Notes under the pieces: model-generated | Database searches by the model: none | What the model saw: only the letters and a program-made list of their open reading frames with translations | What the model was told of the DNA's origin: nothing | Program-made: the position numbers and the translations under genes | Sequence record: MN850574.1 | Length of the DNA: 64,000 nt | Origin: Escherichia phage kaaroe | Direction: 5' to 3' (one strand) | Part shown: positions 1,839 through 48,323 of the stretch, piece after piece | Layout: each line of letters begins with the position of its first letter | Position numbering within the stretch: position 1 is the stretch's first letter

Positions 1839-2270
1839 ATGGTTTATCCAACCCCTAGTAAGATTTACATTGACGATACTCATTTTCTTGTTGAAATTAT
1901 GGGTATCAAGTTTAGTGGTAATGTTAAAATTGTAGAATGGGAATTGCACGGTCAATCTGTAACCGATTATGACCATTATATCCCTTTCGGTGGCGATGAT
2001 AACTTTGTTTCATTCGACCATGAAGGTTACATGAACTTTGAGCAAGACGATGTACCTTTGTATCTGGCAATGATGGATATTCCTACTAAAACAGAATATA
2101 CAGAGGGTGATTGCGATTGTTGCGGATACTACAGCGTAACAGATATTAAGCTGCTATCCGGTAAAGAACTTTACAAAGAGGATCATTTCGGAAACTGCAA
2201 TTTTCCGTGTGATTGGCAAGAATTTTTCGAACTGGTAGAGATTGAGCGAACTTATGTGAGGAAGGGATAA
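1839..2270 (+). CDS. hypothetical Cys-rich protein
   Basis: ORF with GAGGATTATATAATG start context; CDCCGYY and CNFPCDW motifs. Confidence 0.5.
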   Translation: MVYPTPSKIYIDDTHFLVEIMGIKFSGNVKIVEWELHGQSVTDYDHYIPFGGDDNFVSFDHEGYMNFEQDDVPLYLAMMDIPTKTEYTEGDCDCCGYYSVTDIKLLSGKELYKEDHFGNCNFPCDWQEFFELVEIERTYVRKG

Positions 2271-3082
2271 TGAAGAAAGCATTAGGTTTAATTCCCTATA
2301 CTGGCAATAAGGAAAAGTTATTGCCGGGTGTTAGTAAGTATTTCCCTAAGCACTATAACCGCTTTGTTGATGCCTTTTGTGGCGGCTTGAGCGTGTCTCT
2401 GTACGTAGAAGGGGATGTGCTGGCTAATGACTATGATCACCGCTTAATTGAAGCGTACAAAGCGATTGACGAGTGTCCTGATCCGGTTTCTACGATCAAG
2501 CGGATTATTGCCGAGAATGATTTGTCTCGTGATGATAAAGATGCTTACATGGCATTCCGTAAGAAGTATAATGAGAATCCAGATCCGCTATCTCTGTTTG
2601 TTCTGATTCAGCACAGTTTTAGCAACATTAACCGTCATAACAGGAAGGGCGAATTTAATGCTAATTTTGGTCGCCGGACTTTTAACGAAAACGCGGTAGA
2701 GCGTGTCCTGAATTTTAAGGAAGAAAACAAAGACGGTCGAATCAGTTTTACGTCTGGTCGTTATGACGAGATCGAGATCTTGCCAGGTGATTTCGTTTAT
2801 TTGGACCCGCCGTACCTTATCACTTCTGCGGAATATAATAAGTTCTGGAGTGACGAGGAAGAGATTAAATTCTATCAGTGGGTAGAATCTATTATGGCGC
2901 GTGGTTTTCAGTTTGGTATAAGTAATGTCACGCATCATAAGGGAAAGGCAAATGATCATCTTCTTGACTTTATCAAGCGGAATGATTTAAACTGCGTCTT
3001 GTTGAATAAGACCTATTGCCTAGATCGTTCAGGTGGCAAGTCTTCTGATACGCAAGAAGTTTATGTAACTAACGTAGATTGA
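2270..3082 (+). CDS. dam: DNA adenine methyltransferase Dam
   Basis: N-terminal YTGNKxKLLP..FVDxFCGGLSVSL and DPPY motif; colinear with recalled T4 Dam. Confidence 0.85.
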   Translation: MKKALGLIPYTGNKEKLLPGVSKYFPKHYNRFVDAFCGGLSVSLYVEGDVLANDYDHRLIEAYKAIDECPDPVSTIKRIIAENDLSRDDKDAYMAFRKKYNENPDPLSLFVLIQHSFSNINRHNRKGEFNANFGRRTFNENAVERVLNFKEENKDGRISFTSGRYDEIEILPGDFVYLDPPYLITSAEYNKFWSDEEEIKFYQWVESIMARGFQFGISNVTHHKGKANDHLLDFIKRNDLNCVLLNKTYCLDRSGGKSSDTQEVYVTNVD

Positions 3083-3090
3083 GGTATAAC

Positions 3091-3372
3091 ATGGTAGAAA
3101 TTTTTGGTTTTGAAGGTTACAACTGTAAGTATTGCCAGAATGCAAAGCGCCTTTGTGAAGCGCGTAAGATCCCTTACATCTACATTCCGGTTAATGATGG
3201 TGTGGACGAAAACGGTCGCCCGGTAAAGATTGATTCTATCATTGCCGATATTCAGGATCGCGCAGGGGTAGAAGTTATTGCCACCATGCCGCAGATTTTC
3301 TATGATGGTGATTATATCGGTGGCTTTGATGAGTTCCGATCCTTTGTAGTCAAAAACAAGATTAATGGTTAA
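3091..3372 (+). CDS. nrdC: thioredoxin/glutaredoxin-like protein NrdC
   Basis: CKYC redox motif, MPQIFYDGDYIGGFDEF tail similar to recalled T4 NrdC; ATG 3091 after GAGG. Confidence 0.7.
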   Translation: MVEIFGFEGYNCKYCQNAKRLCEARKIPYIYIPVNDGVDENGRPVKIDSIIADIQDRAGVEVIATMPQIFYDGDYIGGFDEFRSFVVKNKING

Positions 3373-3396
3373 ATACCTTCTTTGGAGGGTGAATTT

Positions 3397-3870
3397 ATGT
3401 TACTGACTGCTAAGAGTGCTAAAGAGTACAAACAAGAACTATTCGAAAAACAGGGGGGCATTTGCCCCCTTTGTCAATTGCCACTTTTTGAGGATATGAG
3501 CAAAAACCATCTTGACCACGACCACGATCTAGATGGGAAAGGGCAAGGCCGCGTAAGGGGATTGCTTCATTCGTGTTGCAACCGCCTAGAAGGATCGTTG
3601 ACCGGAGACTTTAAACGGTTTGGTGTTGGTGCTTTAGGTGCTGATTTCGTTGTTTGGGCTACAAACTATGTTAATTACATCAAAGGAGACTACACCAACA
3701 ATCATTTACATCCTCAATATGCTGTTGATAAAGTAAAACGATTTTCACGCTTGACACGCGCGGAGATGGTTGATATTATGGACGCAGAAGGTTTCGATTA
3801 CTGCGACGCTGATACAAGAGAAGAGATCACGAAGAAGTATAAGAAACAATTTATACAAAGATTAAGATAG
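3397..3870 (+). CDS. 49: endonuclease VII (Holliday junction resolvase) gp49
   Basis: MLLTAK..CPLCQ..HLDHDH..RGLLHSCCN matches recalled T4 gp49 zinc-binding/H-N-H region. Confidence 0.85.
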   Translation: MLLTAKSAKEYKQELFEKQGGICPLCQLPLFEDMSKNHLDHDHDLDGKGQGRVRGLLHSCCNRLEGSLTGDFKRFGVGALGADFVVWATNYVNYIKGDYTNNHLHPQYAVDKVKRFSRLTRAEMVDIMDAEGFDYCDADTREEITKKYKKQFIQRLR

Positions 3871-3873
3871 TAG

Positions 3874-3908
3874 TTGACAATAAGAAATGGGAGTAGTAAA
3901 ATACTCCC
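3874..3908 (+). promoter_or_regulatory. early promoter with GGGAGTA/TACTCCC hairpin (PeSL-like)
   Basis: TTGACA 3874-3879, 17-nt spacer, TAAAAT 3897-3902; arms GGGAGTAG 3889-3896 and TACTCCC 3902-3908. Confidence 0.6.
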
Positions 3909-3933
3909 ATCTAATCAAGAAGGAGAATCAACA

Positions 3934-4206
3934 ATGCGTAAGATGTTTAAATCCGGTGTTGCCTATGTTTTTAAATCTGAGCAAGCACATAAAGACTTCT
4001 TAGATGATGAATACGAGGGGGTGAAAGATACCTACGAAGTCATCAAGAATGGGTTTACTGTTCTTAAAGTGTCACCTGTTGGTTATGTAAGTGAAATCTC
4101 GGTTGATGGGAAAACATACACCGCTAAAGACTTTGATCCGCGTTGGGAATTTATGCTGCTTCCGTGTGAGCGCATTCTGTTCCGTGCTGTTCAATTAGTG
4201 AAATGA
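3934..4206 (+). CDS. hypothetical protein, paralog family A member 1
   Basis: AAGGAG RBS; GF(T/K)VLKV..G.V..I.VDG..YT..DF module shared with next two genes. Confidence 0.5.
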   Translation: MRKMFKSGVAYVFKSEQAHKDFLDDEYEGVKDTYEVIKNGFTVLKVSPVGYVSEISVDGKTYTAKDFDPRWEFMLLPCERILFRAVQLVK

Positions 4207-4220
4207 TAGAGGATTATATT

Positions 4221-4787
4221 ATGGTACAGAAAACGTATAAATTGTATCCGGCTAAGTCTTCAAATGATGCTGTTTTTGAACGAGGTCGTTATTACACTTT
4301 CCGTAATGCTGAGTCCGCAGAGGAATTTGTTAAACGCTACCCACAACATAACAAGTTCCTGTATGGTGTGCTTCACAGGGGCTTTAAAGTTCTTACGGTT
4401 AATGTTATGGGTAAAGTGTATTTGGTAGAAACTCATGATTATGAGGGTGCATCAATCATGATTGATGCAAGCGAGCGCAAATACTTTAAACGCATCACTA
4501 AAAAGCAGTTTGAAGAAATGAAACCAGTTAAGAAAGAAGAATCTCTGGAAGATCTGATTAACTTGTTTGGTAAAGTTCGCTCTATCTCCTTTGCGATTGA
4601 AGATGACATTACCGACAATAAAATCTTTATCAAGAACGCGGAAGACCTGAAAGAGTTCCTTATTGAAAATAGATCTCGGCTGGAAACCTTTCTTGAAAGT
4701 GAAATTATTCGACATGATACCTACGCTAAATTCAGCGCCGATAAAGTAGCTGAACTGAAAGAGATCCAAAAGTCATTTAACGCTTGA
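4221..4787 (+). CDS. hypothetical protein, paralog family A member 2
   Basis: Shares GFKVLTV and ERKYFKRITKKQFEEM modules with 4844..6022. Confidence 0.55.
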   Translation: MVQKTYKLYPAKSSNDAVFERGRYYTFRNAESAEEFVKRYPQHNKFLYGVLHRGFKVLTVNVMGKVYLVETHDYEGASIMIDASERKYFKRITKKQFEEMKPVKKEESLEDLINLFGKVRSISFAIEDDITDNKIFIKNAEDLKEFLIENRSRLETFLESEIIRHDTYAKFSADKVAELKEIQKSFNA

Positions 4788-4818
4788 CATGATGAAACGG
4801 GAGTAGTAAGATACTCCC
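4784..4818 (+). promoter_or_regulatory. early promoter with GGGAGTA/TACTCCC hairpin (PeSL-like)
   Basis: TTGACA 4784-4789, 17-nt spacer, TAAGAT 4807-4812, arms GGGAGTAG/TACTCCC. Confidence 0.6.
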
Positions 4819-4843
4819 ATCTAAACAACGAGAGGATTATATT

Positions 4844-6022
4844 ATGGCTAAATTCTTTGAAGGTCATTACTATGCATTCCGTGAAGGCGGTAAAGATGAG
4901 TTTCTAGACTTTTCTCGCTATTCAATTATTCTGACCGATGCTTCGCGCCGTGGTCATATTCGGGTTGCTGAAATCGTAGAAAAGGGCTTTAAAGTATTAG
5001 AAAAAGATGACCACGGTCATGTTATTACTATTGAAGCTGGAGATGTAGTTTATTCCGCTGAGGATATCGTTTATTATTGGTCTACTATGATTATGCACAA
5101 TGAGCGCAAATACTTTAAACGTATCTCAAAAGAGGCATACGAAGCGATGAACAAGAAAGAGGATGCAATGCCGACTTACTTTGAAAAAGGTAAATGTTAT
5201 TCGTTTACCCCAGAAGGTTTGCAAGAATTTAAGCGATTCTGGGGAGAGCATGACCCAGAGCACAAAGAAGCCATGAAACTTGTTGATTTTGTCGAATATG
5301 GCTTTTTAGTTGAAGAAGAATTGCACGGATCAGCTACCATGATCACCGCGAAAGGTGAAACCGTCAAGGCGGACCGTTTTTGTGATCAATGGAATTGCTT
5401 GTTTGACGGTAGCGAATTTGAATACTTCGCGGAAATCACGAAACAACAATTTCATTCTATGCAAGCGGATGGTCAGAGATTTAAAGTAGGTGAACGCTAC
5501 AAACCAAATCAGCATAATTTGCCATATTGGTTTACCGCTGAAACTGTATCAAGTCATGTTGTTGAAATTGTTCAAAAGCTGGGACAAGGATTTAAGGTAA
5601 CTAAAGTAGATGATTATGGAAGTGTTGACGCGGTTGAAATTGATGGTGTAGAATATACACCGAAATCTTTCGGTCTTTGCTGGTATCACTTGATCAGCAA
5701 TGATGAACGTTATAACTTTGTTGAACTGCCATCTGAACCGGAAGAAGCACTAGAAGATCATGATCATCTGTCTGAACTGGTTAAGCTGTTTGGTGATCTG
5801 CCGGATGGTGTAGGCGTGGCGGTAATGGGTGAAGGTGCTGTTATCCGAAACCTGAAAGACTTTAAAAAGTTCTTGATTGACATGCTGCCTAAACTTGATG
5901 ATAATCTAGATACAGATATTCAGAATCGCAAAGAAATTGTTAAAGAGACTGAAAAAGAGATCGAAGAGATTCGAGCAATTCGCCAGAAGGTGAAAGCAGT
6001 AAAGAAAAAAGTTAGTGCTTGA
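4844..6022 (+). CDS. hypothetical protein, paralog family A member 3 (internally repeated)
   Basis: Contains GFKVLEK, GFKVTKV, ERKYFKRISKEAYEAM and EFEYFAEITKQQFHSM repeats of the family A module. Confidence 0.6.
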   Translation: MAKFFEGHYYAFREGGKDEFLDFSRYSIILTDASRRGHIRVAEIVEKGFKVLEKDDHGHVITIEAGDVVYSAEDIVYYWSTMIMHNERKYFKRISKEAYEAMNKKEDAMPTYFEKGKCYSFTPEGLQEFKRFWGEHDPEHKEAMKLVDFVEYGFLVEEELHGSATMITAKGETVKADRFCDQWNCLFDGSEFEYFAEITKQQFHSMQADGQRFKVGERYKPNQHNLPYWFTAETVSSHVVEIVQKLGQGFKVTKVDDYGSVDAVEIDGVEYTPKSFGLCWYHLISNDERYNFVELPSEPEEALEDHDHLSELVKLFGDLPDGVGVAVMGEGAVIRNLKDFKKFLIDMLPKLDDNLDTDIQNRKEIVKETEKEIEEIRAIRQKVKAVKKKVSA

Positions 6023-6053
6023 CATGCGAAGGGAGTATGCTATAATACTCCCA
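6019..6053 (+). promoter_or_regulatory. early promoter with GGGAGTA/TACTCCC hairpin (PeSL-like)
   Basis: TTGACA 6019-6024, TATAAT 6041-6046, arms GGGAGTA 6031-6037 and TACTCCC 6047-6053. Confidence 0.6.
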
Positions 6054-6076
6054 CTTAACAACGAGAGGATTATATT

Positions 6077-6571
6077 ATGTGGGTACAAGATGTTTGGTAT
6101 ACTGTAACTAAAGAAAACCTTGACGCATTCAGCGACCAATCTTGCGCTAATAGCTCAATTGCTGGTATACTTACTGATGTGTTTGGTGGTGTAGATAAAA
6201 TTCGTTTTAAAGTTGTTGTTAGTTCGCTGGGTCAGGTGAAAGATCTTTACACCGAAGATAAAGACCTTGATCTTGAACTTCGTCTTCGTATTGATAATGC
6301 AAGTCTAGGTTATTGGTTTGAAGATAACGAATATGAATACTTCACGCCAGCAATTAAAGTTTTTGCGACTAAACTGGAAGCTGTACTGAATCTCCGACCA
6401 ATTAATGTTGACGGATACATTATCAAAAATATTCAGGATTGGGAGTTGTATCTAGATCAGGTTATCCGAAATAGTAAGCAGGAAGCCGCTAATAAGAAGC
6501 GACAAGAGATTAAACAGCTTAAAGCTGAACTAGAAGCTAAAGAAAAAGAATTAGCAGAACTGGTAAAATAA
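6077..6571 (+). CDS. hypothetical protein with C-terminal coiled coil
   Basis: GAGAGGATTATATTATG start context; C-terminal heptad-like KQLKAELEAKEKELAELVK. Confidence 0.5.
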   Translation: MWVQDVWYTVTKENLDAFSDQSCANSSIAGILTDVFGGVDKIRFKVVVSSLGQVKDLYTEDKDLDLELRLRIDNASLGYWFEDNEYEYFTPAIKVFATKLEAVLNLRPINVDGYIIKNIQDWELYLDQVIRNSKQEAANKKRQEIKQLKAELEAKEKELAELVK

Positions 6572-6581
6572 CTATCAACGA

Positions 6582-6603
6582 GCGGGAGAAATCCCGCTTT
6601 TTC
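6582..6603 (+). terminator. intrinsic terminator
   Basis: GCGGGAgaaaTCCCGC followed by TTTTTC. Confidence 0.6.
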
Positions 6604-6615
6604 ATAGGTGATACA

Positions 6616-8478
6616 ATGGAAAAACTAATCAAAGACATTACAGAGATCGCAACGGGTAAAGAAAACGAAGTAAGCAAAGAGAACGCGAACAAAGACGCGC
6701 GAACATTCCCGACACGTCGAGATCTGATTGCTGGTGCTGTGTCTAAACAGATTGCTAAAACCGTGTTACCTGAGCACATCTATAAAGCGCATGTAGACGG
6801 TGACATTCATTATCATGATATGGATTATGCACCCGCTATGCCGTTTACTAACTGCTGTCTTGTTAATCTCAAAGACATGTTAGAGAATGGTTTTAAATTG
6901 GGTAGCGCACAAATCGAAAGTCCGAAATCAATCGGCGTTGCTTGTGCTGTAACCGCTCAAATTATCGCACAGGTGGCAAGTCATCAATATGGCGGGACCA
7001 CAATCGCAAACATCGATCAGGTGTTAGCACCGTATGTTGAGAAAACATATCATAAACACCTTGCTGATGCCGAAACCTACGGAATCAAAGCTGATACTCT
7101 CTATGCACAAGAGAAGACAGAAAAAGAAACTTTAGACGGGTATCAAGCGTTGGAATATGAAATCAACACTTTGTTCTCCACCAACGGTCAAACGCCTTTT
7201 GTGACTTTAACCTTTGGTATGGGTACTAGCTGGGAAGAAAAACTGATTCAGAAAGCGATCCTGAACGTTCGAACTAAAGGTTTAGGTAAAGATGGTATCA
7301 CTCCGGTGTTTCCTAAGCTGGTGATGTTCTTAGAAGAAGGATTAAACCTTAAACCGGAAGATCCGAACTACGACATTAAGCAACTTGCATTGGAATGTTC
7401 TAGTAAGCGTCTTTACCCTGATTATATCTCTGCGAAGAATAACCGTAGTATCACCGGATCTAGTGTTCCGGTTAGCCCGATGGGTTGTCGTAGCTTCCTG
7501 GGTGTGTGGCATAATGAGAAAGGCGAAGAAGTATTAGACGGACGTAATAACTTGGGTGTTGTGACCCTGAATCTTCCGCGTATTGCCCTTATTGCCGCGC
7601 GTCGTGCTGGTAAAGCGTCTGTAATGCGCAGAATTGAGCTATTCGAACAAGAGCTAGCCAATCGTATGCCTATTTGCTTTGATGCGCTCATGAGTCGCGT
7701 AGACGCTTTAAAAGGGGCTAAAGCCAATGTTGCTCCGGTGCTGTATACCGAAGGTGCGTTTTTCCGTATTCATCAAAACGATGAAATTTTGGAAGTGTTG
7801 AAAGATGGTCGCGCTAGTATCTCTCTTGGATATATTGGTTTACATGAGGTATTGAGCGTCCTGTTTGGTGTTCATCCGTTTGATTCGGAAGATGCGCAGC
7901 GATACGGTAAACATATTCTTAAGATCTTGCGTCATTATACTGAAAAATGGAAGGACGAAACCGGACTTGGGTTTAGTCTTTACGGTACTCCAGCCGAGAG
8001 CCTTTGCTATCGATTTAATCGACTGGACCGAGAGCAATTTGGTATTGTTAAGGGTGCTACCGATAAAGACTGGTACACCAACTCATTCCACCTTGACGTA
8101 GACCGGAAAGTCACTCCATTTGAGAAAATTGACTTTGAGAAAGATTATCACTGGCTGGCGTCCGGTGGCATGATCTCTTATGTTGAGTTCCCAGACATGA
8201 AAAACAACCTGAAAGGTCTTGAAACTGTAGTAGACTATGCAATGGATAAATTGCACTACTTCGGTGTTAATACTCCTTCTGATGTATGTCATGTATGCGG
8301 ATCTACTAAGGAAATGAGAGCGACCGAGTCTGGTTTTGTTTGTCCTGATTGCGGTAATGACAATCTGGACAAGATGAATGTTATCCGTCGCGTTAGTGGA
8401 TATCTTGGATCTGTTGATCTGCGTCCATTCAACCACGGGAAACACTCCGAGATGGTAAACCGCGTTAAGCACATGTAA
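6616..8478 (+). CDS. nrdD: anaerobic ribonucleoside-triphosphate reductase NrdD, uninterrupted
   Basis: Near full-length colinearity with recalled T4 NrdD (NANKDARTFPTRRDL..., C-terminal CHVCGST...CPDCG, glycyl-radical region). Confidence 0.95.
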   Translation: MEKLIKDITEIATGKENEVSKENANKDARTFPTRRDLIAGAVSKQIAKTVLPEHIYKAHVDGDIHYHDMDYAPAMPFTNCCLVNLKDMLENGFKLGSAQIESPKSIGVACAVTAQIIAQVASHQYGGTTIANIDQVLAPYVEKTYHKHLADAETYGIKADTLYAQEKTEKETLDGYQALEYEINTLFSTNGQTPFVTLTFGMGTSWEEKLIQKAILNVRTKGLGKDGITPVFPKLVMFLEEGLNLKPEDPNYDIKQLALECSSKRLYPDYISAKNNRSITGSSVPVSPMGCRSFLGVWHNEKGEEVLDGRNNLGVVTLNLPRIALIAARRAGKASVMRRIELFEQELANRMPICFDALMSRVDALKGAKANVAPVLYTEGAFFRIHQNDEILEVLKDGRASISLGYIGLHEVLSVLFGVHPFDSEDAQRYGKHILKILRHYTEKWKDETGLGFSLYGTPAESLCYRFNRLDREQFGIVKGATDKDWYTNSFHLDVDRKVTPFEKIDFEKDYHWLASGGMISYVEFPDMKNNLKGLETVVDYAMDKLHYFGVNTPSDVCHVCGSTKEMRATESGFVCPDCGNDNLDKMNVIRRVSGYLGSVDLRPFNHGKHSEMVNRVKHM

Positions 8479-8483
8479 ATTTC

Positions 8484-8512
8484 AGCCGATCCGAAAGGGT
8501 CGGCTTTTTCGT
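8484..8512 (+). terminator. intrinsic terminator
   Basis: AGCCGATCCgaaaGGGTCGGCT then TTTTTCGTTTT. Confidence 0.65.
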
Positions 8513-8521
8513 TTTGGGGTG

Positions 8522-8549
8522 TTGACAACATGATTAGCTAATGTATAAT
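8522..8549 (+). promoter_or_regulatory. sigma70-type early promoter
   Basis: TTGACA 8522-8527, 16-nt spacer, TATAAT 8544-8549. Confidence 0.55.
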
Positions 8550-8578
8550 GCTCACATCGAAAACAACGAGAGGACAAC

Positions 8579-9118
8579 ATGATGATGTTTTGTGTACTGA
8601 ACAAAGAAGTTAAACTTCGTAAACTGGAAATTGGCGATGGTGTTGTTGTTAAAATGCACGCTAGCACATTGACTAGTTTTAATTTAAAGGAAAGTTTTTT
8701 TATTAGAGGAACGGTGGTTAATATCTGCTGGAGTAAAGGCGAAGGAATCCGTAGCTTTTGCGTAATTGACGATGATAATAACCTGTATGTGATTCGCTAT
8801 CATAATAATTCTGTATTGGTCTATACCGACAATTCACGAGAATTGTATACTCTTGAATTTGTTAAGCGTACTGATTGCGATCGATTTGTTCGTGCTTATG
8901 AAGAAGATGGCTGTTTTGCGACTGAAACAGAAACAAATGAATATGTTCCTATGGAAGTAGGAGCAGAAATTAAACACAAGATCACGGATCGTATTTTTAA
9001 GGTTGTTGCGGTTGCTCATACTCAATTTGTAGCGCAAGCGCCGGATGAAGAATTTATTATCTACAATATTGGTAATGCAAGTTCTCATTTTCATAATGTA
9101 CTATATCGCGACCTTTGA
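8579..9118 (+). CDS. hypothetical protein
   Basis: ORF downstream of promoter with GAGAGG RBS. Confidence 0.5.
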   Translation: MMMFCVLNKEVKLRKLEIGDGVVVKMHASTLTSFNLKESFFIRGTVVNICWSKGEGIRSFCVIDDDNNLYVIRYHNNSVLVYTDNSRELYTLEFVKRTDCDRFVRAYEEDGCFATETETNEYVPMEVGAEIKHKITDRIFKVVAVAHTQFVAQAPDEEFIIYNIGNASSHFHNVLYRDL

Positions 9119-9135
9119 TAATGTGTGAGGTGAAT

Positions 9136-9663
9136 ATGAAATCATTAAACCGTAAGCGTAAAGCACAACGACACAAAGAACGAGCTAAAAAGATTGCTAT
9201 TGAACTGGTTGAGCGTGAGGATAGCTATTTGTCTACGGGTCGTTTGTATACATTCCATGCATTGATTGATGGTAAGCCAGTGTTGCATAATCATGATTGC
9301 TTAGCACTGTTTCACGAGATCGAACCAATCCATCGTGAATGGGATGACAACAAAGCAAAAGGACAATATTTCCTTACTTGTTCGTGTGGTCATGCTGGAT
9401 GTGCTGGATATTGGGAACCTGTTACGATCCGTGAGAAAAATGATACTATTCAATGGGTCGCCCGTACCCGCGATGGTTATGATAAAGGTGCTGATGGTAC
9501 TGGCGATAACGTAGTTTACTTTAATCGTGATTGGTATTATATGGCGCGATGTATGATCCTGTTTTATCTTGACTCGATGCCGTATGAATATTTCAGTTTC
9601 CAGAATGGGACCGAACTGACAGGGAAGGAATGGTCTGAATACATTCGAAAAAATTTAAAATAA
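9136..9663 (+). CDS. hypothetical Cys-containing protein
   Basis: ATG 9136 after GAGGTG; CSCGHAGCAGYW motif. Confidence 0.5.
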   Translation: MKSLNRKRKAQRHKERAKKIAIELVEREDSYLSTGRLYTFHALIDGKPVLHNHDCLALFHEIEPIHREWDDNKAKGQYFLTCSCGHAGCAGYWEPVTIREKNDTIQWVARTRDGYDKGADGTGDNVVYFNRDWYYMARCMILFYLDSMPYEYFSFQNGTELTGKEWSEYIRKNLK

Positions 9664-9667
9664 ATGC

Positions 9668-9696
9668 TTGACGGGGATCGCGAGATCCCCTATACT
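9668..9696 (+). promoter_or_regulatory. early promoter with GGGGATC/GATCCCC hairpin
   Basis: TTGACG 9668-9673, 17-nt spacer, TATACT 9691-9696; palindrome GGGGATCgcgaGATCCCC 9673-9690. Confidence 0.5.
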
Positions 9697-9738
9697 ATAT
9701 TCATCAAGACGAGATACAACTTTACAGGAGAATCAAAT

Positions 9739-9891
9739 ATGTGGACTTTACTGATTTGGGAAACTGAAAACGCACAAGTAGAAATCCGTGAATACGAATA
9801 CCTAAGCCCAGCTTATCTATTAGCATCTCGCGGTGGTTACTATAAAGCGCAGATTGTAAACGAGTTCGGGGTAATTGAATATGAGTTCTGA
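9739..9891 (+). CDS. hypothetical small protein
   Basis: AGGAGAATCAAAT leader then ATG 9739; 50 aa. Confidence 0.35.
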   Translation: MWTLLIWETENAQVEIREYEYLSPAYLLASRGGYYKAQIVNEFGVIEYEF

Positions 9892-10384
9892 TACATACGG
9901 CAAACTACGCTATGCCGATATTAAAGATTGTGATATGGTTAACGGTGAGGGAGTGAGAGTCTCCCTTTACGTTACCGGATGTTCACACGCATGTGATGGT
10001 TGCTTTAATGCTAGCCTACTCAATCCTAAGAACGGGGAACCATTCACCGATGATACAATGGGATTGATTCTGGATCTGCTTAGACCTGATTTTATTCAGG
10101 GGCTAACATTCTTAGGTGGCGATCCACTGTATAAACGCAATTTAAAGGGTGTACAGCGGATCATCGATGAAGTAAAATCATGGATGCCAAATAAAGATAT
10201 TTGGCTATGGTCCGGTTATACCCTTGACCAATTGAATGATGAGCAAAGAAAAATTGTAGAATCAGTTGACATGTTCATCGATGGGCGTTATATTAAAGAT
10301 ATGCCAACGAAGAAGCCGTGGCGGGGATCTGACAATCAAGTACAATACAAGATTGTTAATAGTATTCCAGTGAAAATTATTTGA
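9881..10384 (+). CDS. nrdG: anaerobic ribonucleotide reductase activating protein NrdG
   Basis: Radical-SAM-like GCSHACDGC cluster, GGDPLY and KKPWRGSDNQ matching recalled T4 NrdG. Confidence 0.9.
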   Translation: MSSDTYGKLRYADIKDCDMVNGEGVRVSLYVTGCSHACDGCFNASLLNPKNGEPFTDDTMGLILDLLRPDFIQGLTFLGGDPLYKRNLKGVQRIIDEVKSWMPNKDIWLWSGYTLDQLNDEQRKIVESVDMFIDGRYIKDMPTKKPWRGSDNQVQYKIVNSIPVKII

Positions 10385-10394
10385 GGTGATTATT

Positions 10395-10922
10395 ATGGAA
10401 TGGGAAGTTGGTAAAACTTACAAGATTGAATGCGAAGCGTCGAAAGCCGAACTGACTAAATTTTCGTCGTCTATTAACAGATGTATTGTTGACTTGTTGG
10501 CTGGTCGCCCGTTTAGGGTAGAAGACCTTGACGATGATGGTGATGTTAGAGAAATTACTATTATTGGTAGTGATTTCGACTCTATGACGTTAAAAGAATC
10601 CCCTATTGGTTGTTCTGGTGTGTGGTTTTGGTCGGGTGAGCGTCGTTTCTTTACCGAAGTTACTATTGAACCTAAGATTCCAGATTCAGAAGAAAAAGAA
10701 GAAGACCTAACTTTAGAACGCCTGGGTCTGCTTATGGAAGCCTACGACATTCAGTTGATCGATAAGATGGGGTTACATAATAGCATTGCCAAAATTACTA
10801 CCCTAGAAGGTATTAAGAGCGTACTGGATGGTATGCCTAGCCGGATCGGTGCTATCAGAGAATACAAACAAACGCGCGACCGTATGATCCAATTAGAATC
10901 ACGTATCAAAAATGAGAGATGA
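10395..10922 (+). CDS. hypothetical protein, paralog family B member 1
   Basis: N-terminal MEWEVGKTYK motif shared with the next three genes. Confidence 0.55.
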   Translation: MEWEVGKTYKIECEASKAELTKFSSSINRCIVDLLAGRPFRVEDLDDDGDVREITIIGSDFDSMTLKESPIGCSGVWFWSGERRFFTEVTIEPKIPDSEEKEEDLTLERLGLLMEAYDIQLIDKMGLHNSIAKITTLEGIKSVLDGMPSRIGAIREYKQTRDRMIQLESRIKNER

Positions 10923-10926
10923 TATT

Positions 10927-11391
10927 ATGAAATGGGAAGCTGGTAAGACCTATGCGTGGAAAGATGTAAAAGATGCAAACCAATTTTTTAAATGGTATGA
11001 TGTTGATTATTTGAAATATCTGCGATTACCGTTTAAAGTTGCGTCGGTTGATGCGAAAAAAGGATACGTGCGGTCTGTTTATCTTCATGATGGAACTTAT
11101 ATGAGTTCAACCGATGTAGGTCTATCTTGTTGGTTTCTGGATCATGACCGTAGCAGATTTGAAGAAATTATTATTCCAGAAGAATCTAAATTAATTGACC
11201 TTCTCAAATTGGCGATGGATAATTATAAAATTCGCTTTGAATGCAAATCACATGCGGCTATCGGTGCTAACGCCTTGCGTCATATCTCCAGTTTTGAAGA
11301 GTTGAAAGATTTTCTTGACAAAATGCCGGAAAGAGTGCAAGCTATACAGGAAGCTGAGAAAGCATTAAACGAACTTGATAAAATCGGTTAA
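10927..11391 (+). CDS. hypothetical protein, paralog family B member 2
   Basis: MKWEAGKTYAWKD N-terminus; C-terminal helical tail resembling other family B members. Confidence 0.55.
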   Translation: MKWEAGKTYAWKDVKDANQFFKWYDVDYLKYLRLPFKVASVDAKKGYVRSVYLHDGTYMSSTDVGLSCWFLDHDRSRFEEIIIPEESKLIDLLKLAMDNYKIRFECKSHAAIGANALRHISSFEELKDFLDKMPERVQAIQEAEKALNELDKIG

Positions 11392-11403
11392 GGGGAATAT
11401 ATT

Positions 11404-12228
11404 ATGAAATGGGAAATTGGTAAAACTTACACTTGGAAAGATGAAAACGCGAAAACTGAGTTTATTACTAACGGAGAAGGTGTTCTTTCTCCACTTAACA
11501 GCGATATCAGTGCAGCTATTGGTGACAAGCCATTTACCATCATCGAGATCGAGGGTAACGGTTGGATTGATGCAATAGAGCTAGACGGTGTTTATCATAC
11601 GGCGAAAACTGCTACAGGAAAAGACATTTGGACTGCAACATATTTCTTTAGTCCATTCGATAGAAAATTCTTTCGTGAAGTTGAAGAAGTTCCCCAGAAA
11701 TGGGAAGTTGGTAAAACTTATACTTGGAAAGATGCGAATGCTATGACCGACTTCTGTCATTATGCTGAAAACGTATCTAACCTTAATTATGTTATTGCAC
11801 GAGCAATAAATTATAGACCTTTTACTGTTAAAAATGTTAGTCCATGTGGGCAAGTTAATGTAATTGAAATTGATGGTAAAGACCATACTCTAATGAGTGC
11901 AACCGAAGATAGCGACCATAAAGGAACTAGCTGGTTTATTGATTCTGATAGAAAATTCTTTCGTGAAGTAGAAGAATTGGAAGTTATAACCACTGATTCT
12001 AAGATCGTTGGACAGTTGAAACGTCTGTTTAGTAGTCGTTATGGCCTGACAATGGTTAAATTTAGCGAAGCAAATGAAGGTAAAACCTTTGAACGTTTCG
12101 ATGATTTCATCGCAGCACTTGACAAGATGGACGAAATAATGCAAGATCGCCAGAAGATTAAAGACCTTCAAGAAGACATTAAACGTCGTGAAGTTGAATT
12201 TTTGATTGGTAAAGAGCGAGGTTGGTAA
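11404..12228 (+). CDS. hypothetical protein, paralog family B member 3 (two tandem modules)
   Basis: MKWEIGKTYTWKD and a second internal QKWEVGKTYTWKD; repeated DRKFFREVEE. Confidence 0.6.
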   Translation: MKWEIGKTYTWKDENAKTEFITNGEGVLSPLNSDISAAIGDKPFTIIEIEGNGWIDAIELDGVYHTAKTATGKDIWTATYFFSPFDRKFFREVEEVPQKWEVGKTYTWKDANAMTDFCHYAENVSNLNYVIARAINYRPFTVKNVSPCGQVNVIEIDGKDHTLMSATEDSDHKGTSWFIDSDRKFFREVEELEVITTDSKIVGQLKRLFSSRYGLTMVKFSEANEGKTFERFDDFIAALDKMDEIMQDRQKIKDLQEDIKRREVEFLIGKERGW

Positions 12229-12229
12229 T

Positions 12230-12706
12230 ATGTTTGTTGTTGGCATGACCTATCAGTGGAAAAACGAACAAGCGCGTAAAGCCTTTGCAACCAGTGATGC
12301 GAATCGTGTGATCTCCGAGTTTATCGGGGACCGTCAGTTTAAAGTCTTAGCTATTGATTCATCTACTATACCTGAATATGTTTCTGTGATTGAAATCGAT
12401 GGTAAGGCTTACCAGTGTCCAGACAATGAAAAGGTTTATCTTTATGCTTGTAATTGGTTTTCACCTACCGAAGATCAATATTTTAAAGTAGTATCAGCAG
12501 AACTATCATCCGAAGCAATGATGCAACAATTCTTCAATAACTACGAAGTTTCTGTGCGTCGCTATGGCGAAGAAGAAGTGTTTAAAATCGATGATTACAA
12601 TCAGTTTAAACGAGTATTCGCCACTAAGTTGCAGCGTGACTTTGAACGTGACCAACGGATCAAGGAACTGGAAGAAGAACTAGAAAGATTAAAGGCTGAG
12701 AAATGA
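12230..12706 (+). CDS. hypothetical protein, paralog family B member 4
   Basis: MFVVGMTYQWKNE N-terminus and coiled-coil C-terminus. Confidence 0.55.
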   Translation: MFVVGMTYQWKNEQARKAFATSDANRVISEFIGDRQFKVLAIDSSTIPEYVSVIEIDGKAYQCPDNEKVYLYACNWFSPTEDQYFKVVSAELSSEAMMQQFFNNYEVSVRRYGEEEVFKIDDYNQFKRVFATKLQRDFERDQRIKELEEELERLKAEK

Positions 12707-21920: not shown

Positions 21921-21941
21921 GGGGAGTATAAAATACTCCCC
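21921..21941 (+). other. GGGGAGTA/TACTCCCC hairpin with TATAAAAT in loop region
   Basis: 8-bp stem with 5-nt loop between genes 45 and 44; same arm sequence as the PeSL-like promoters. Confidence 0.45.
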
Positions 21942-29816: not shown

Positions 29817-30452
29817 ATGATCGCTAATGCTTTACCGCCAAAATGGATCGTAAGTCGCTTTTATACTCTCAAGGAAGGTAACGCACCTGATGGTCGTCCG
29901 ATCCGAGATCTGTTTCTGGAGATGACTACAGCCGAAGCACAGTTTTATAATGATCTGACAGACGATAAGCCATTTCTCGTAAATTCGGTGGACCTTGATG
30001 GCAATGTCACATCAATCATCACACATGGTGGGGGAGTGAAAAATATTACTTCTCTGCGTGATCACGGTTGGGAAATTGCTTGTGTATTTCCTGCGGATGT
30101 ACGCGGATTCTTTGATGAGGTATCTGATATTAAAGTAAATGCACTGGAACCATATGACGAGATCCCACCACTGAAAGAAGAAAAAGAGTTGACACCGGAA
30201 GATGTAGATAGTACACTACACCCCGACCTATTTAAGAAGATTAGCGGTTTATGGACTGTTACCCTGTATCCAACCGCATTAGGTCTAGAATTGGGTATGC
30301 CAACTTATTCTGATATTGATAATTGGAATAAGAGCATTGATAAAGATGTTGAAAAACAGCGAAATAATGCTAAAATGCAACTTAAAGAGAAACGCAAAGA
30401 TCTTGAACGACAACTGAAAGAAACAAAACGTTTGCTTTCTACATTCGCTTGA
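29817..30452 (+). CDS. hypothetical protein
   Basis: ORF with GGAGA RBS. Confidence 0.5.
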   Translation: MIANALPPKWIVSRFYTLKEGNAPDGRPIRDLFLEMTTAEAQFYNDLTDDKPFLVNSVDLDGNVTSIITHGGGVKNITSLRDHGWEIACVFPADVRGFFDEVSDIKVNALEPYDEIPPLKEEKELTPEDVDSTLHPDLFKKISGLWTVTLYPTALGLELGMPTYSDIDNWNKSIDKDVEKQRNNAKMQLKEKRKDLERQLKETKRLLSTFA

Positions 30453-31180: not shown

Positions 31181-31384
31181 ATGATTACGATGAAATGTCT
31201 TAAAAGCACATATGCACTTTTTGAAGCCGGAAAAGAATATGAATTTACAGAACTTGATTCGGTAGGCCGTTTTCGTGTATTCTCTTACACATCGCCAGAT
31301 GGTAGTGTCTACAAATTTGGCTTAGATGAAAACGGAGAGAATGAAAATGAAAGTGTAGGAACTTTCATGAAATTTGAGCTATAA
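31181..31384 (+). CDS. hypothetical protein
   Basis: Small ORF upstream of primase. Confidence 0.4.
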   Translation: MITMKCLKSTYALFEAGKEYEFTELDSVGRFRVFSYTSPDGSVYKFGLDENGENENESVGTFMKFEL

Positions 31385-47708: not shown

Positions 47709-47743
47709 TTGACGTAAAGATAAGGGAGTAGTAACATACTCCC
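47709..47743 (+). promoter_or_regulatory. early promoter with GGGAGTA/TACTCCC hairpin (PeSL-like)
   Basis: TTGACG 47709-47714, 17-nt spacer, TAACAT 47732-47737; arms GGGAGTAG 47724-47731 and TACTCCC 47737-47743. Confidence 0.55.
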
Positions 47744-48288: not shown

Positions 48289-48323
48289 TTGACACCGGAT
48301 TAAGGGAGTAGTAACATACTCCC
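48289..48323 (+). promoter_or_regulatory. early promoter with GGGAGTA/TACTCCC hairpin (PeSL-like)
   Basis: TTGACA 48289-48294, 17-nt spacer, TAACAT 48312-48317; arms identical to the 47709 copy. Confidence 0.55.

Follow-up and report, generated by a model that had tools for sequence, protein, structure and literature searches.

A family of small early bacteriophage T4 proteins comprising GoF (ComC-alpha), Frd.2 and MotB.1, with an 'LSm-like fold', was described by Kim et al. 2025 (PMC12152347), in which the N-terminal domains span residues 1-91 of GoF and 1-88 of Frd.2. According to this study, the rho-suppressor sites of GoF are D25Y and G84R, the gain-of-function mutant GoF(D25Y) acts post-transcriptionally by stabilising the mRNA of gene 41, an RNA reporter assay revealed little effect of wild-type GoF and MotB.1, and both proteins run partly as dimers. 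Multimers of GoF were modelled by AlphaFold3 with low confidence only and a ring was not predicted; an analogy of the family with RNA chaperones was proposed. RB49, tandem arrays and multi-barrel members are not mentioned in that paper. For RB49 and phi1, early promoter/stem-loop (PeSL) cassettes have been shown experimentally to possess promoter and terminator activity and have a role in modular shuffling (PMC2839356); nrdD was named as a PeSL-associated gene (Arbiol et al. 2010, PMC2839356).

Here, a stretch of 64,000 nucleotides (nt) of Escherichia phage kaaroe (MN850574.1), referred to as the window, was analyzed with respect to a group of genes between gene 49 and nrdD, termed A1 to A4 (A array). 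The locus is best explained as a tandem array of paralogs of T4 GoF and Frd.2 (and MotB.1). We hold the identity, architecture and origin of the array, taken together, to be highly probable; the complete explanation, which additionally comprises expression and mechanism, is regarded as probable. Already known are the family itself, described in 2025, and the annotation of A2 and A3; new are a triple-barrel member, two arrays flanking nrdD-nrdG and a polymorphism in module content.

Modules of the array and their family

The window belongs to a phage of the genus Krischvirus (RB49-like coliphage, Straboviridae). All family members described below and the cassettes preceding A1, A3 and A4 are located on the plus strand, as are the genes from dam to nrdD. 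A1 (3934-4206, 90 amino acids (aa)) consists of one barrel module without C-terminal tail, whereas in A2 (4221-4787, 188 aa) a linker connects the single module (aa ~17-104) to a C-terminal domain. A3 (4844-6022, 392 aa) contains three modules, located at 4844-5161 (module 1, aa 1-106), 5168-5470 (module 2, aa 109-209) and 5474-5761 (module 3, aa 211-306), and a helical tail (5762-6022, aa ~307-392), which has a long C-terminal helix and is homologous to the tail of A2. A4 (6077-6571, 164 aa) is a divergent member, in which one module is followed by a coiled-coil tail.

In blastp searches, A2 aligned to three segments of A3 (E-values 1e-9, 9e-9 and 5e-5), while A1 matched A2 as well as two A3 segments. 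A hidden Markov model (HMM) built without any A3 sequence recovered the complete domain three times in A3 (aa 3-97, 113-202 and 211-295; independent E-values 2e-11, 1e-3 and 7e-11, respectively), and A1 was matched by an HMM made from the modules of a second array, the B array described below, alone (E 3e-10). When A2 was aligned with A3 using MAFFT, 'module 1 ... tail' was aligned and modules 2 and 3 formed an insertion. The internal repeats of A3 were established using shuffle-calibrated Smith-Waterman comparisons together with leave-out HMMs. The module measures about 95 aa in A1, A2 and A3, and the three modules of A3 are mutually 27-37% identical.

An earlier note on this DNA had claimed three tandem genes of 90, 188 and 392 aa at 3934-6022, located between gene 49 and nrdD and sharing a repeated unit of growing copy number. 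The three open reading frames (ORFs) were found at these coordinates, as was their position between gp49 (3382-3870) and nrdD (6616-8478), and the blastp alignments of A2 to three segments of A3 and the A3-free HMM confirm repeat units at protein level. The copy number had to be corrected: the 392-aa gene carries exactly three modules and a C-terminal helical tail instead of about four copies, the series from A1 to A3 reads 1, 1, 3 with A4 back to 1, and the step from 90 to 188 aa is the gain of a tail instead of growth by a module. The motif ERKYFKRI(T/S)K..F..M is indeed common to A2 and A3 module 1 (78% DNA identity over 50 nt), but it is not a helix module of its own; in the high-confidence A2 model, it belongs to the beta-rich domain, of which it makes up the final strand and the helix behind it. 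The limits of the family were also drawn too narrowly, since A4, four genes of the B array (B1-B4) and Dc2 belong to it as well.

A chance or compositional similarity of the modules, or decaying duplicates without function, would be compatible with the lack of an off-diagonal match when A3 was compared to itself by BLAST, with the insignificant pairwise tests for A4 and for the pair of modules 2 and 3, and with the lack of a significant Pfam or NCBIfam family for any array member. Such a reading has a negligible probability and is ruled out by the leave-out HMMs, by the comparison of A4 with a family alignment from which A4 had been omitted (hhalign probability 96.8%, E 2.6e-10), by core conservation and by the ratios of non-synonymous to synonymous substitutions (dN/dS) of 0.09-0.29. 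Among 114 modules, three of the core positions Y, F, G, F are invariant in 97-98% and the G in 72%. The confident structure prediction for A2 and ORFs which are intact in 56 of 58 genomes also speak against it.

Structure prediction of a single module had been proposed in the earlier note. The A2 model, built from an alignment of 80 sequences, has a mean predicted local distance difference test score (pLDDT) of 87.1, and its module folds as a small barrel with a pLDDT of about 95 over aa 20-100. A strand (aa 24-27) precedes two helices (aa 30-51), strands at aa 55-60 and 66-70, a short fourth strand, a strand at aa 89-92 and a helix at aa 94-99; after the linker, two strands are flanked by one helix on either side, and a terminal helix of 37 residues completes the model. 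The predicted module is a bent five-stranded antiparallel beta-sheet, i.e., an SH3/LSm-like barrel, and its nearest solved neighbour is an SH3 domain of the FeoA type. The conserved residues (Y, F, G, F, F) form the hydrophobic core, and a conserved polar surface was not found. Searching BFVD with the A2 model in Foldseek gave 52 matches at E ≤ 1e-3, one being an annotated GoF. All host-named matches come from phages of Gram-negative bacteria, many recognisably T4-like, and comprise coliphages and phages of Aeromonas, Serratia, Acinetobacter, Citrobacter, Pectobacterium, Edwardsiella, Proteus and Erwinia. Dc2 is linked by structure through a match to Dc2 of phage ECD7 (E 2.8e-5).

The A3 model (pLDDT 68, predicted template modelling score (pTM) 0.33) displays the same secondary-structure pattern three times. 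At full length, it had no Foldseek match in the PDB at E ≤ 1e-3; Mind bomb, with its tandem SH3-like Mib repeat, was the best hit (E 0.013), and FeoA appeared lower in the list. A layout of barrel, flexible linker and variable C-terminal domain is common to A2, A3, A4, B1-B4 and Dc2, the C-terminal domain being absent from A1. The additional barrels in A3 and B3 are a variation which has not been described for the GoF/Frd.2/MotB.1 family. Judging from the partial dimers seen for GoF and MotB.1, the long amphipathic helix of the C-terminal domain is a probable dimerisation element.

With respect to family identity, phrog_622 is the family of both T4 GoF (E 5e-38) and T4 Frd.2 (E 4e-46), and it matched A3 (E 9e-20, three stretches), A1 (E 1.9e-7) and A2 (E 1e-5) as well as B1 (E 2e-10) and B3 (E 7e-19, two stretches). 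A1 was assigned to phrog_16115 (E 4e-60), A2 and A3 to phrog_8944 with the label 'goF mRNA metabolism modulator', and B1-B4 all to phrog_5347 (B1 E 1e-66), with cross-matches to phrog_622 and goF PHROGs. RefSeq labels the RB49 counterpart of A2 as 'goF mRNA metabolism modulator' and that of A3 as 'frd.2'. A module HMM made from window sequences only recognised T4 GoF with 33.7 bits over aa 4-91 and Frd.2 with 15.7 bits over aa 2-89. These spans coincide with the published N-terminal domains. The module is the N-terminal domain of the GoF/Frd.2 family (PMC12152347), which makes the earlier statement that the function is unknown only half true. No match was obtained in a scan of the whole window against Rfam, nor below E 0.1 in the PDB using sequence profiles.

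An HMM from the A modules alone detected a second array of four genes directly after nrdG (10395-12706). It is composed of B1 (10395-10922, 175 aa, counterpart of RB49p051) and B2 (10927-11391, 154 aa, RB49p050), each with a single module and a tail, B3 (11404-12228, 274 aa) with two modules, and B4 (12230-12706, 158 aa, RB49p048) with a single module and a coiled-coil tail. A further member is Dc2 (29817-30452, 211 aa, RB49 dc2), which carries a single divergent module and a tail and was found with E 2e-6 using a 10-module HMM and with E 1.9e-6 using an HMM from B modules only. Dc2 is located directly downstream of the helicase gene 41, whose mRNA level is affected by T4 GoF(D25Y); this adjacency may be a coincidence. 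In total, the window has 9 genes with 12 modules; no further members were found in its remaining part or in the covered parts of RB49 (1-72 kb and 108-145 kb, without the structural genes at 72-108 kb). In RB49 (5021-5971), none of goF, cef, motB, motB.1 and motB.2 is present in the interval from the 39.2-like FmdB gene to dexA; the GoF-type genes of Krischvirus are located elsewhere, namely close to nrdD/nrdG and downstream of gene 41.

To assess the breadth of the family, 1.84 billion cluster representatives were searched exhaustively with HMMER, which returned only 90 clusters at E ≤ 1e-3; word-index homolog searches recovered close relatives only. Of the sampled clusters, several lie on contigs of ~170-178 kb and others on short fragments; Yersinia phage MHG19 is an example. 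The number of modules per protein was determined for 89 module-bearing entries, i.e., 87 cluster representatives plus T4 GoF and Frd.2 added by hand. One module was present in 78 entries, two in 9 and three in 2, the latter being the A3 lineage and an unrelated metagenomic protein of 354 aa (P0078). Proteins with more than one barrel thus recur without being common, and those with three are rare. Two-module proteins annotated as goF occur at the canonical goF locus of Enterobacter, Klebsiella, Edwardsiella and Pectobacterium phages.

Module gain, loss and exchange

The region 3300-6700 of the window shares 99.9% identity with Escherichia phage vB_EcoM_PTE-Eco09 and 97.6% with RB49. At ≥ 90% identity, this region was found in 58 phage records, in 56 of which coverage was ≥ 80%, and the A array is intact in 56 of these 58 Krischvirus records. 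A tblastn search of A3 against 50,697 phage records gave no match beyond the same 58, hence single-sequence searches miss other genera.

All eight ortholog clusters of A3 encode 391-392 aa; the triple architecture is old and fixed. On a 170-kb Krischvirus-like contig, the genes of the A array measure 90, 188, 392 and 162 aa and those of the B array 162, 159, 184 and 160 aa. In relatives which otherwise hardly differ, B3 exists in three alleles. Orthologs of 182-184 aa (one at 10001-10555 of a related locus) correspond to B3 minus exactly one module, the window form of 274 aa has two, and a form of 277 aa (e.g., in phage UPWr_E1) also has two, with module 1 and tail nearly identical to the B3 of the window and a second module which is only 42% identical. 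The boundaries of the B3 modules are conserved at DNA level (30 nt at 97% identity at the module ends, 57 nt at 82% at the starts, spacing 288-291 nt), and the swapped allele looks like an in-frame cassette exchange.

The array probably originated by tandem gene duplication combined with the gain of whole modules inside a gene, for which either a fusion of adjacent genes or unequal crossing-over where the module ends are conserved could be responsible. By unequal or cassette recombination at the boundary repeats of B3, a single module would be gained, lost or exchanged in frame, and the one-module, two-module and swapped alleles probably represent the same process caught in action. Tandem paralogy and domain amplification within a gene of an accessory region, as proposed in the earlier note, are supported; B3 of related phages provides direct evidence that the module number varies in this family. 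A recent duplication of DNA was rejected; DNA repeats are limited to short conserved motifs.

For A3 in particular, a fusion of adjacent single-module genes with loss of stop codons and spacers, instead of internal duplication, is a possibility that we rate as rather unlikely. It would fit the affinities of module 2, whose best match outside its orthologs is a single-module protein of another lineage (P0044, 57 bits), whereas module 1 reaches 38 bits. The nearest paralog of module 3 is module 1, ahead of A1, and module 1 resembles A2; moreover, the B genes, which abut or overlap, could readily be fused by read-through. On the other hand, exactly one module is cleanly inserted or deleted between conserved module-end motifs within the single gene B3, an unfused relative of A3 was not found, the eight ortholog clusters all having 391-392 aa, and the A3 modules are too divergent for a reliable tree.

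The dN/dS values of A1-A4, calculated against RB49 and against a divergent contig, range from 0.09 to 0.29 (A1 alone 0.12-0.29), and those of the individual A3 modules from 0.09 to 0.28. For gp49 and nrdD, 0.02-0.06 was obtained in the same comparison. A1-A4 are all under purifying selection; consequently, they are functional, although at protein level they change several-fold faster than the neighbouring core genes.

Expression cassettes and gene neighbourhood

A1, A3 and A4 are each preceded by a cassette of ~60 nt, which comprises TTGACA, a spacer, the hairpin GGGAGTA-loop-TACTCCC and a common leader, CAACGAGAGGATTATATTATG. Upstream of A1 (3874-3933), TTGACA is followed by a 17-nt spacer, TAAAAT and a Shine-Dalgarno sequence, and the hairpin GGGAGTA/TACTCCC encloses the -10 element (z-score -3.8). 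The cassette of A3 is located at 4784-4843 and that of A4 at 6019-6076, the latter with a match of 12/12 to the σ70 consensus. The pattern TTGACA-N-GGAGTA-loop-TACTCC gave four exact matches versus none expected, three of them preceding A1, A3 and A4. The z-scores of the PeSL hairpins range from -2.9 to -3.8, and the consensus σ70 promoters directly upstream of array genes have 10-12 of 12 matches. No PeSL cassettes precede the B genes, which are directly adjacent or overlapping. As judged from these sequences, the array would be expressed immediately after infection from PeSL early promoter/stem-loop cassettes.

The cassettes share a σ70 promoter, a stem-loop and a Shine-Dalgarno/start region before accessory genes with the PeSLs of RB49 and phi1 (PMC2839356, PMC4122927). 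They are instances of these elements with no difference of substance, the -10 hexamer being located in the hairpin loop here. A degenerate copy is present at 8522-8578 before the ORF following nrdD, and similar hairpins were seen at 21923-21939, 47725-47742 and 48305-48322.

The A array is situated among genes of nucleotide metabolism, in the order dam (2270-3082), nrdC (3079-3372), gp49, A1-A4 and nrdD. In the locus of a divergent Krischvirus-like contig (positions 914-1715), gene calling split dam into two ORFs of 49 aa and 177 aa, each matching PF02086, which suggests a disrupted or frameshifted dam. Directly after nrdD, a strong hairpin resembling an intrinsic terminator (8484-8505; 9 bp with 6 GC pairs, then a T-run) is present, and 3' of it a promoter with 12/12 consensus matches (8522-8549). 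The interval between nrdD and nrdG contains three ORFs without functional label at 8579-9118 (phrog_14838), 9115-9663 (phrog_8242) and 9664-9891 (Pfam DUF7170, E 2e-17), which were rejected as members of the barrel family (E ≥ 0.09). Likewise rejected was an ORF of 67 aa at 31181-31384 (phrog_9181), whose N-terminus, FEAGKEY.F, is weakly module-like (E 0.09).

Function and comparison with known systems

Since only residues of the hydrophobic core are conserved, the array proteins are probably non-enzymatic binding scaffolds. The genetics of GoF suggest that they may modulate the fate of mRNA, for which several barrels per chain together with the dimerising tail would provide multivalency. Possible targets are RNA or, more likely because the array proteins are acidic, proteins of the RNA-handling machinery of the host. 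This mechanism in mRNA metabolism is put forward tentatively, with somewhat less than even confidence. The isoelectric points (pI) of the array proteins are 4.6-5.2, and the A2 module alone is basic with 9.5.

Several results weigh against the explanation as a whole. The acidic pI of 4.6-5.2 speaks against direct binding of RNA, and wild-type GoF and MotB.1 had little effect in the RNA reporter assay (PMC12152347). The model of A3 is only moderate (pLDDT 68, pTM 0.33), so the arrangement of its three barrels is not predicted confidently. Finally, the better match of A3 module 2 to a single-module protein of another lineage (57 bits versus 38 bits to module 1) makes gene fusion possible in place of internal duplication.

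The barrels could instead be protein-protein modules (SH3/FeoA-like) for host targets unrelated to RNA, e.g., inhibitors or decoys of defence, with paralog expansion and module swapping read as an arms race. We give this possibility a little over one chance in three. The acidity of most members, the FeoA, SH3-type fold of the closest solved structure and a conservation limited to the core, with no conserved polar surface, would fit such binding. This reading would also be in agreement with protein evolution 3-10 times faster than that of neighbouring core genes, with the exchange of the second B3 module for a 42%-identical version while the rest of the gene is nearly identical, and with the location of the genes in a hyperplastic region with PeSL cassettes; wild-type GoF being inactive on RNA also points in this direction. 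However, the sole genetic phenotype of the family concerns Rho and mRNA level, no partner is known, and the characterisation of GoF, in which pull-down with mass spectrometry was included, gave its authors no functional insight (PMC12152347).

Regarding a role in mRNA fate, the alignment columns of the two GoF suppressor sites were inspected. In the D25 column, 5 of the 12 window modules have an aromatic residue (F in A3 module 1, A3 module 2 and B1, Y in B3 module 2, W in B2), and in the G84 column 5 of 12 have K or R; both features coincide in A3 module 1, B3 module 2 and B1. Some Krischvirus paralogs might naturally possess the 'active' form which T4 GoF attains only by mutation, a possibility that we regard as improbable. 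If it were true, proteins of the A3 type would be covalently multivalent, LSm-like protectors of mRNA in which tandem repeats replace the Sm ring, and swapping the second module of B3 would retune the specificity for RNA or for a partner.

The closest described system is the T4 family itself (PMC12152347; PHROG 622, 8944, 13003, 2980). Common features are the N-terminal barrel of ~90 aa at profile level, the predicted fold with FeoA as nearest structural neighbour, the succession of barrel, linker and variable C-terminal domain, the acidity of the proteins and the occurrence in T4-like phages; as suggested by the promoters, the window genes would be early genes as well. T4 has three scattered single-barrel genes, whereas the phage of the window has 9 genes with 12 barrels, 8 of these genes in two arrays flanking nrdD-nrdG. 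Differences are also the three barrels of A3 and the two of B3 in one chain, the missing C-terminal domain of A1 and the canonical goF/motB.1 locus (39.2-dexA), which is empty in RB49.

Two modules per polypeptide are also found in the two-barrel 'goF' proteins of other enterobacterial phages with genomes of ~165-178 kb, e.g., Yersinia phage MHG19 (WCZ66272), Enterobacter phages CC31 and CIP9 and Edwardsiella phage PEi20; several RefSeq records annotate goF. In contrast to the arrays, these genes are located at the canonical goF locus beside an FmdB-like gene, have a C-terminal domain of the GoF type and carry at most two modules.

Sm, LSm and Hfq proteins resemble the module in their small bent five-stranded antiparallel beta-sheet. 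However, no Pfam LSM or Hfq match was found at E ≤ 1, nor a sequence relative in the PDB, the helices of the module separate strand 1 from strand 2 and follow strand 5 instead of being N-terminal, the array proteins are acidic and a ring is not predicted for GoF, so that multivalency would come from covalent repeats, not from rings. The likeness to FeoA exists at fold level only, with no Pfam FeoA match and no FeoB context. Structural scores for FeoA and Mib are weak, at identities of 10-13% (Mib repeat, 6e55 FeoA) and 18% (the weaker 2k5l FeoA), and the array modules differ from FeoA in having no metal-handling histidines.

Compared to these systems, Krischvirus provides the richest natural series of the GoF family found here, from a bare barrel and a barrel with tail to two and three barrels. 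The natural one-module, two-module and swapped alleles of B3 are constructs with which to ask what the barrel binds and whether valency matters, and some paralogs naturally carry the residue types linked to the mRNA activity of T4 GoF. For annotation, nine Krischvirus genes, most of them labelled 'hypothetical', form one superfamily, and the 'frd.2' of 392 aa contains three domains. The result usefully refines a described family and does not represent a new kind of system.

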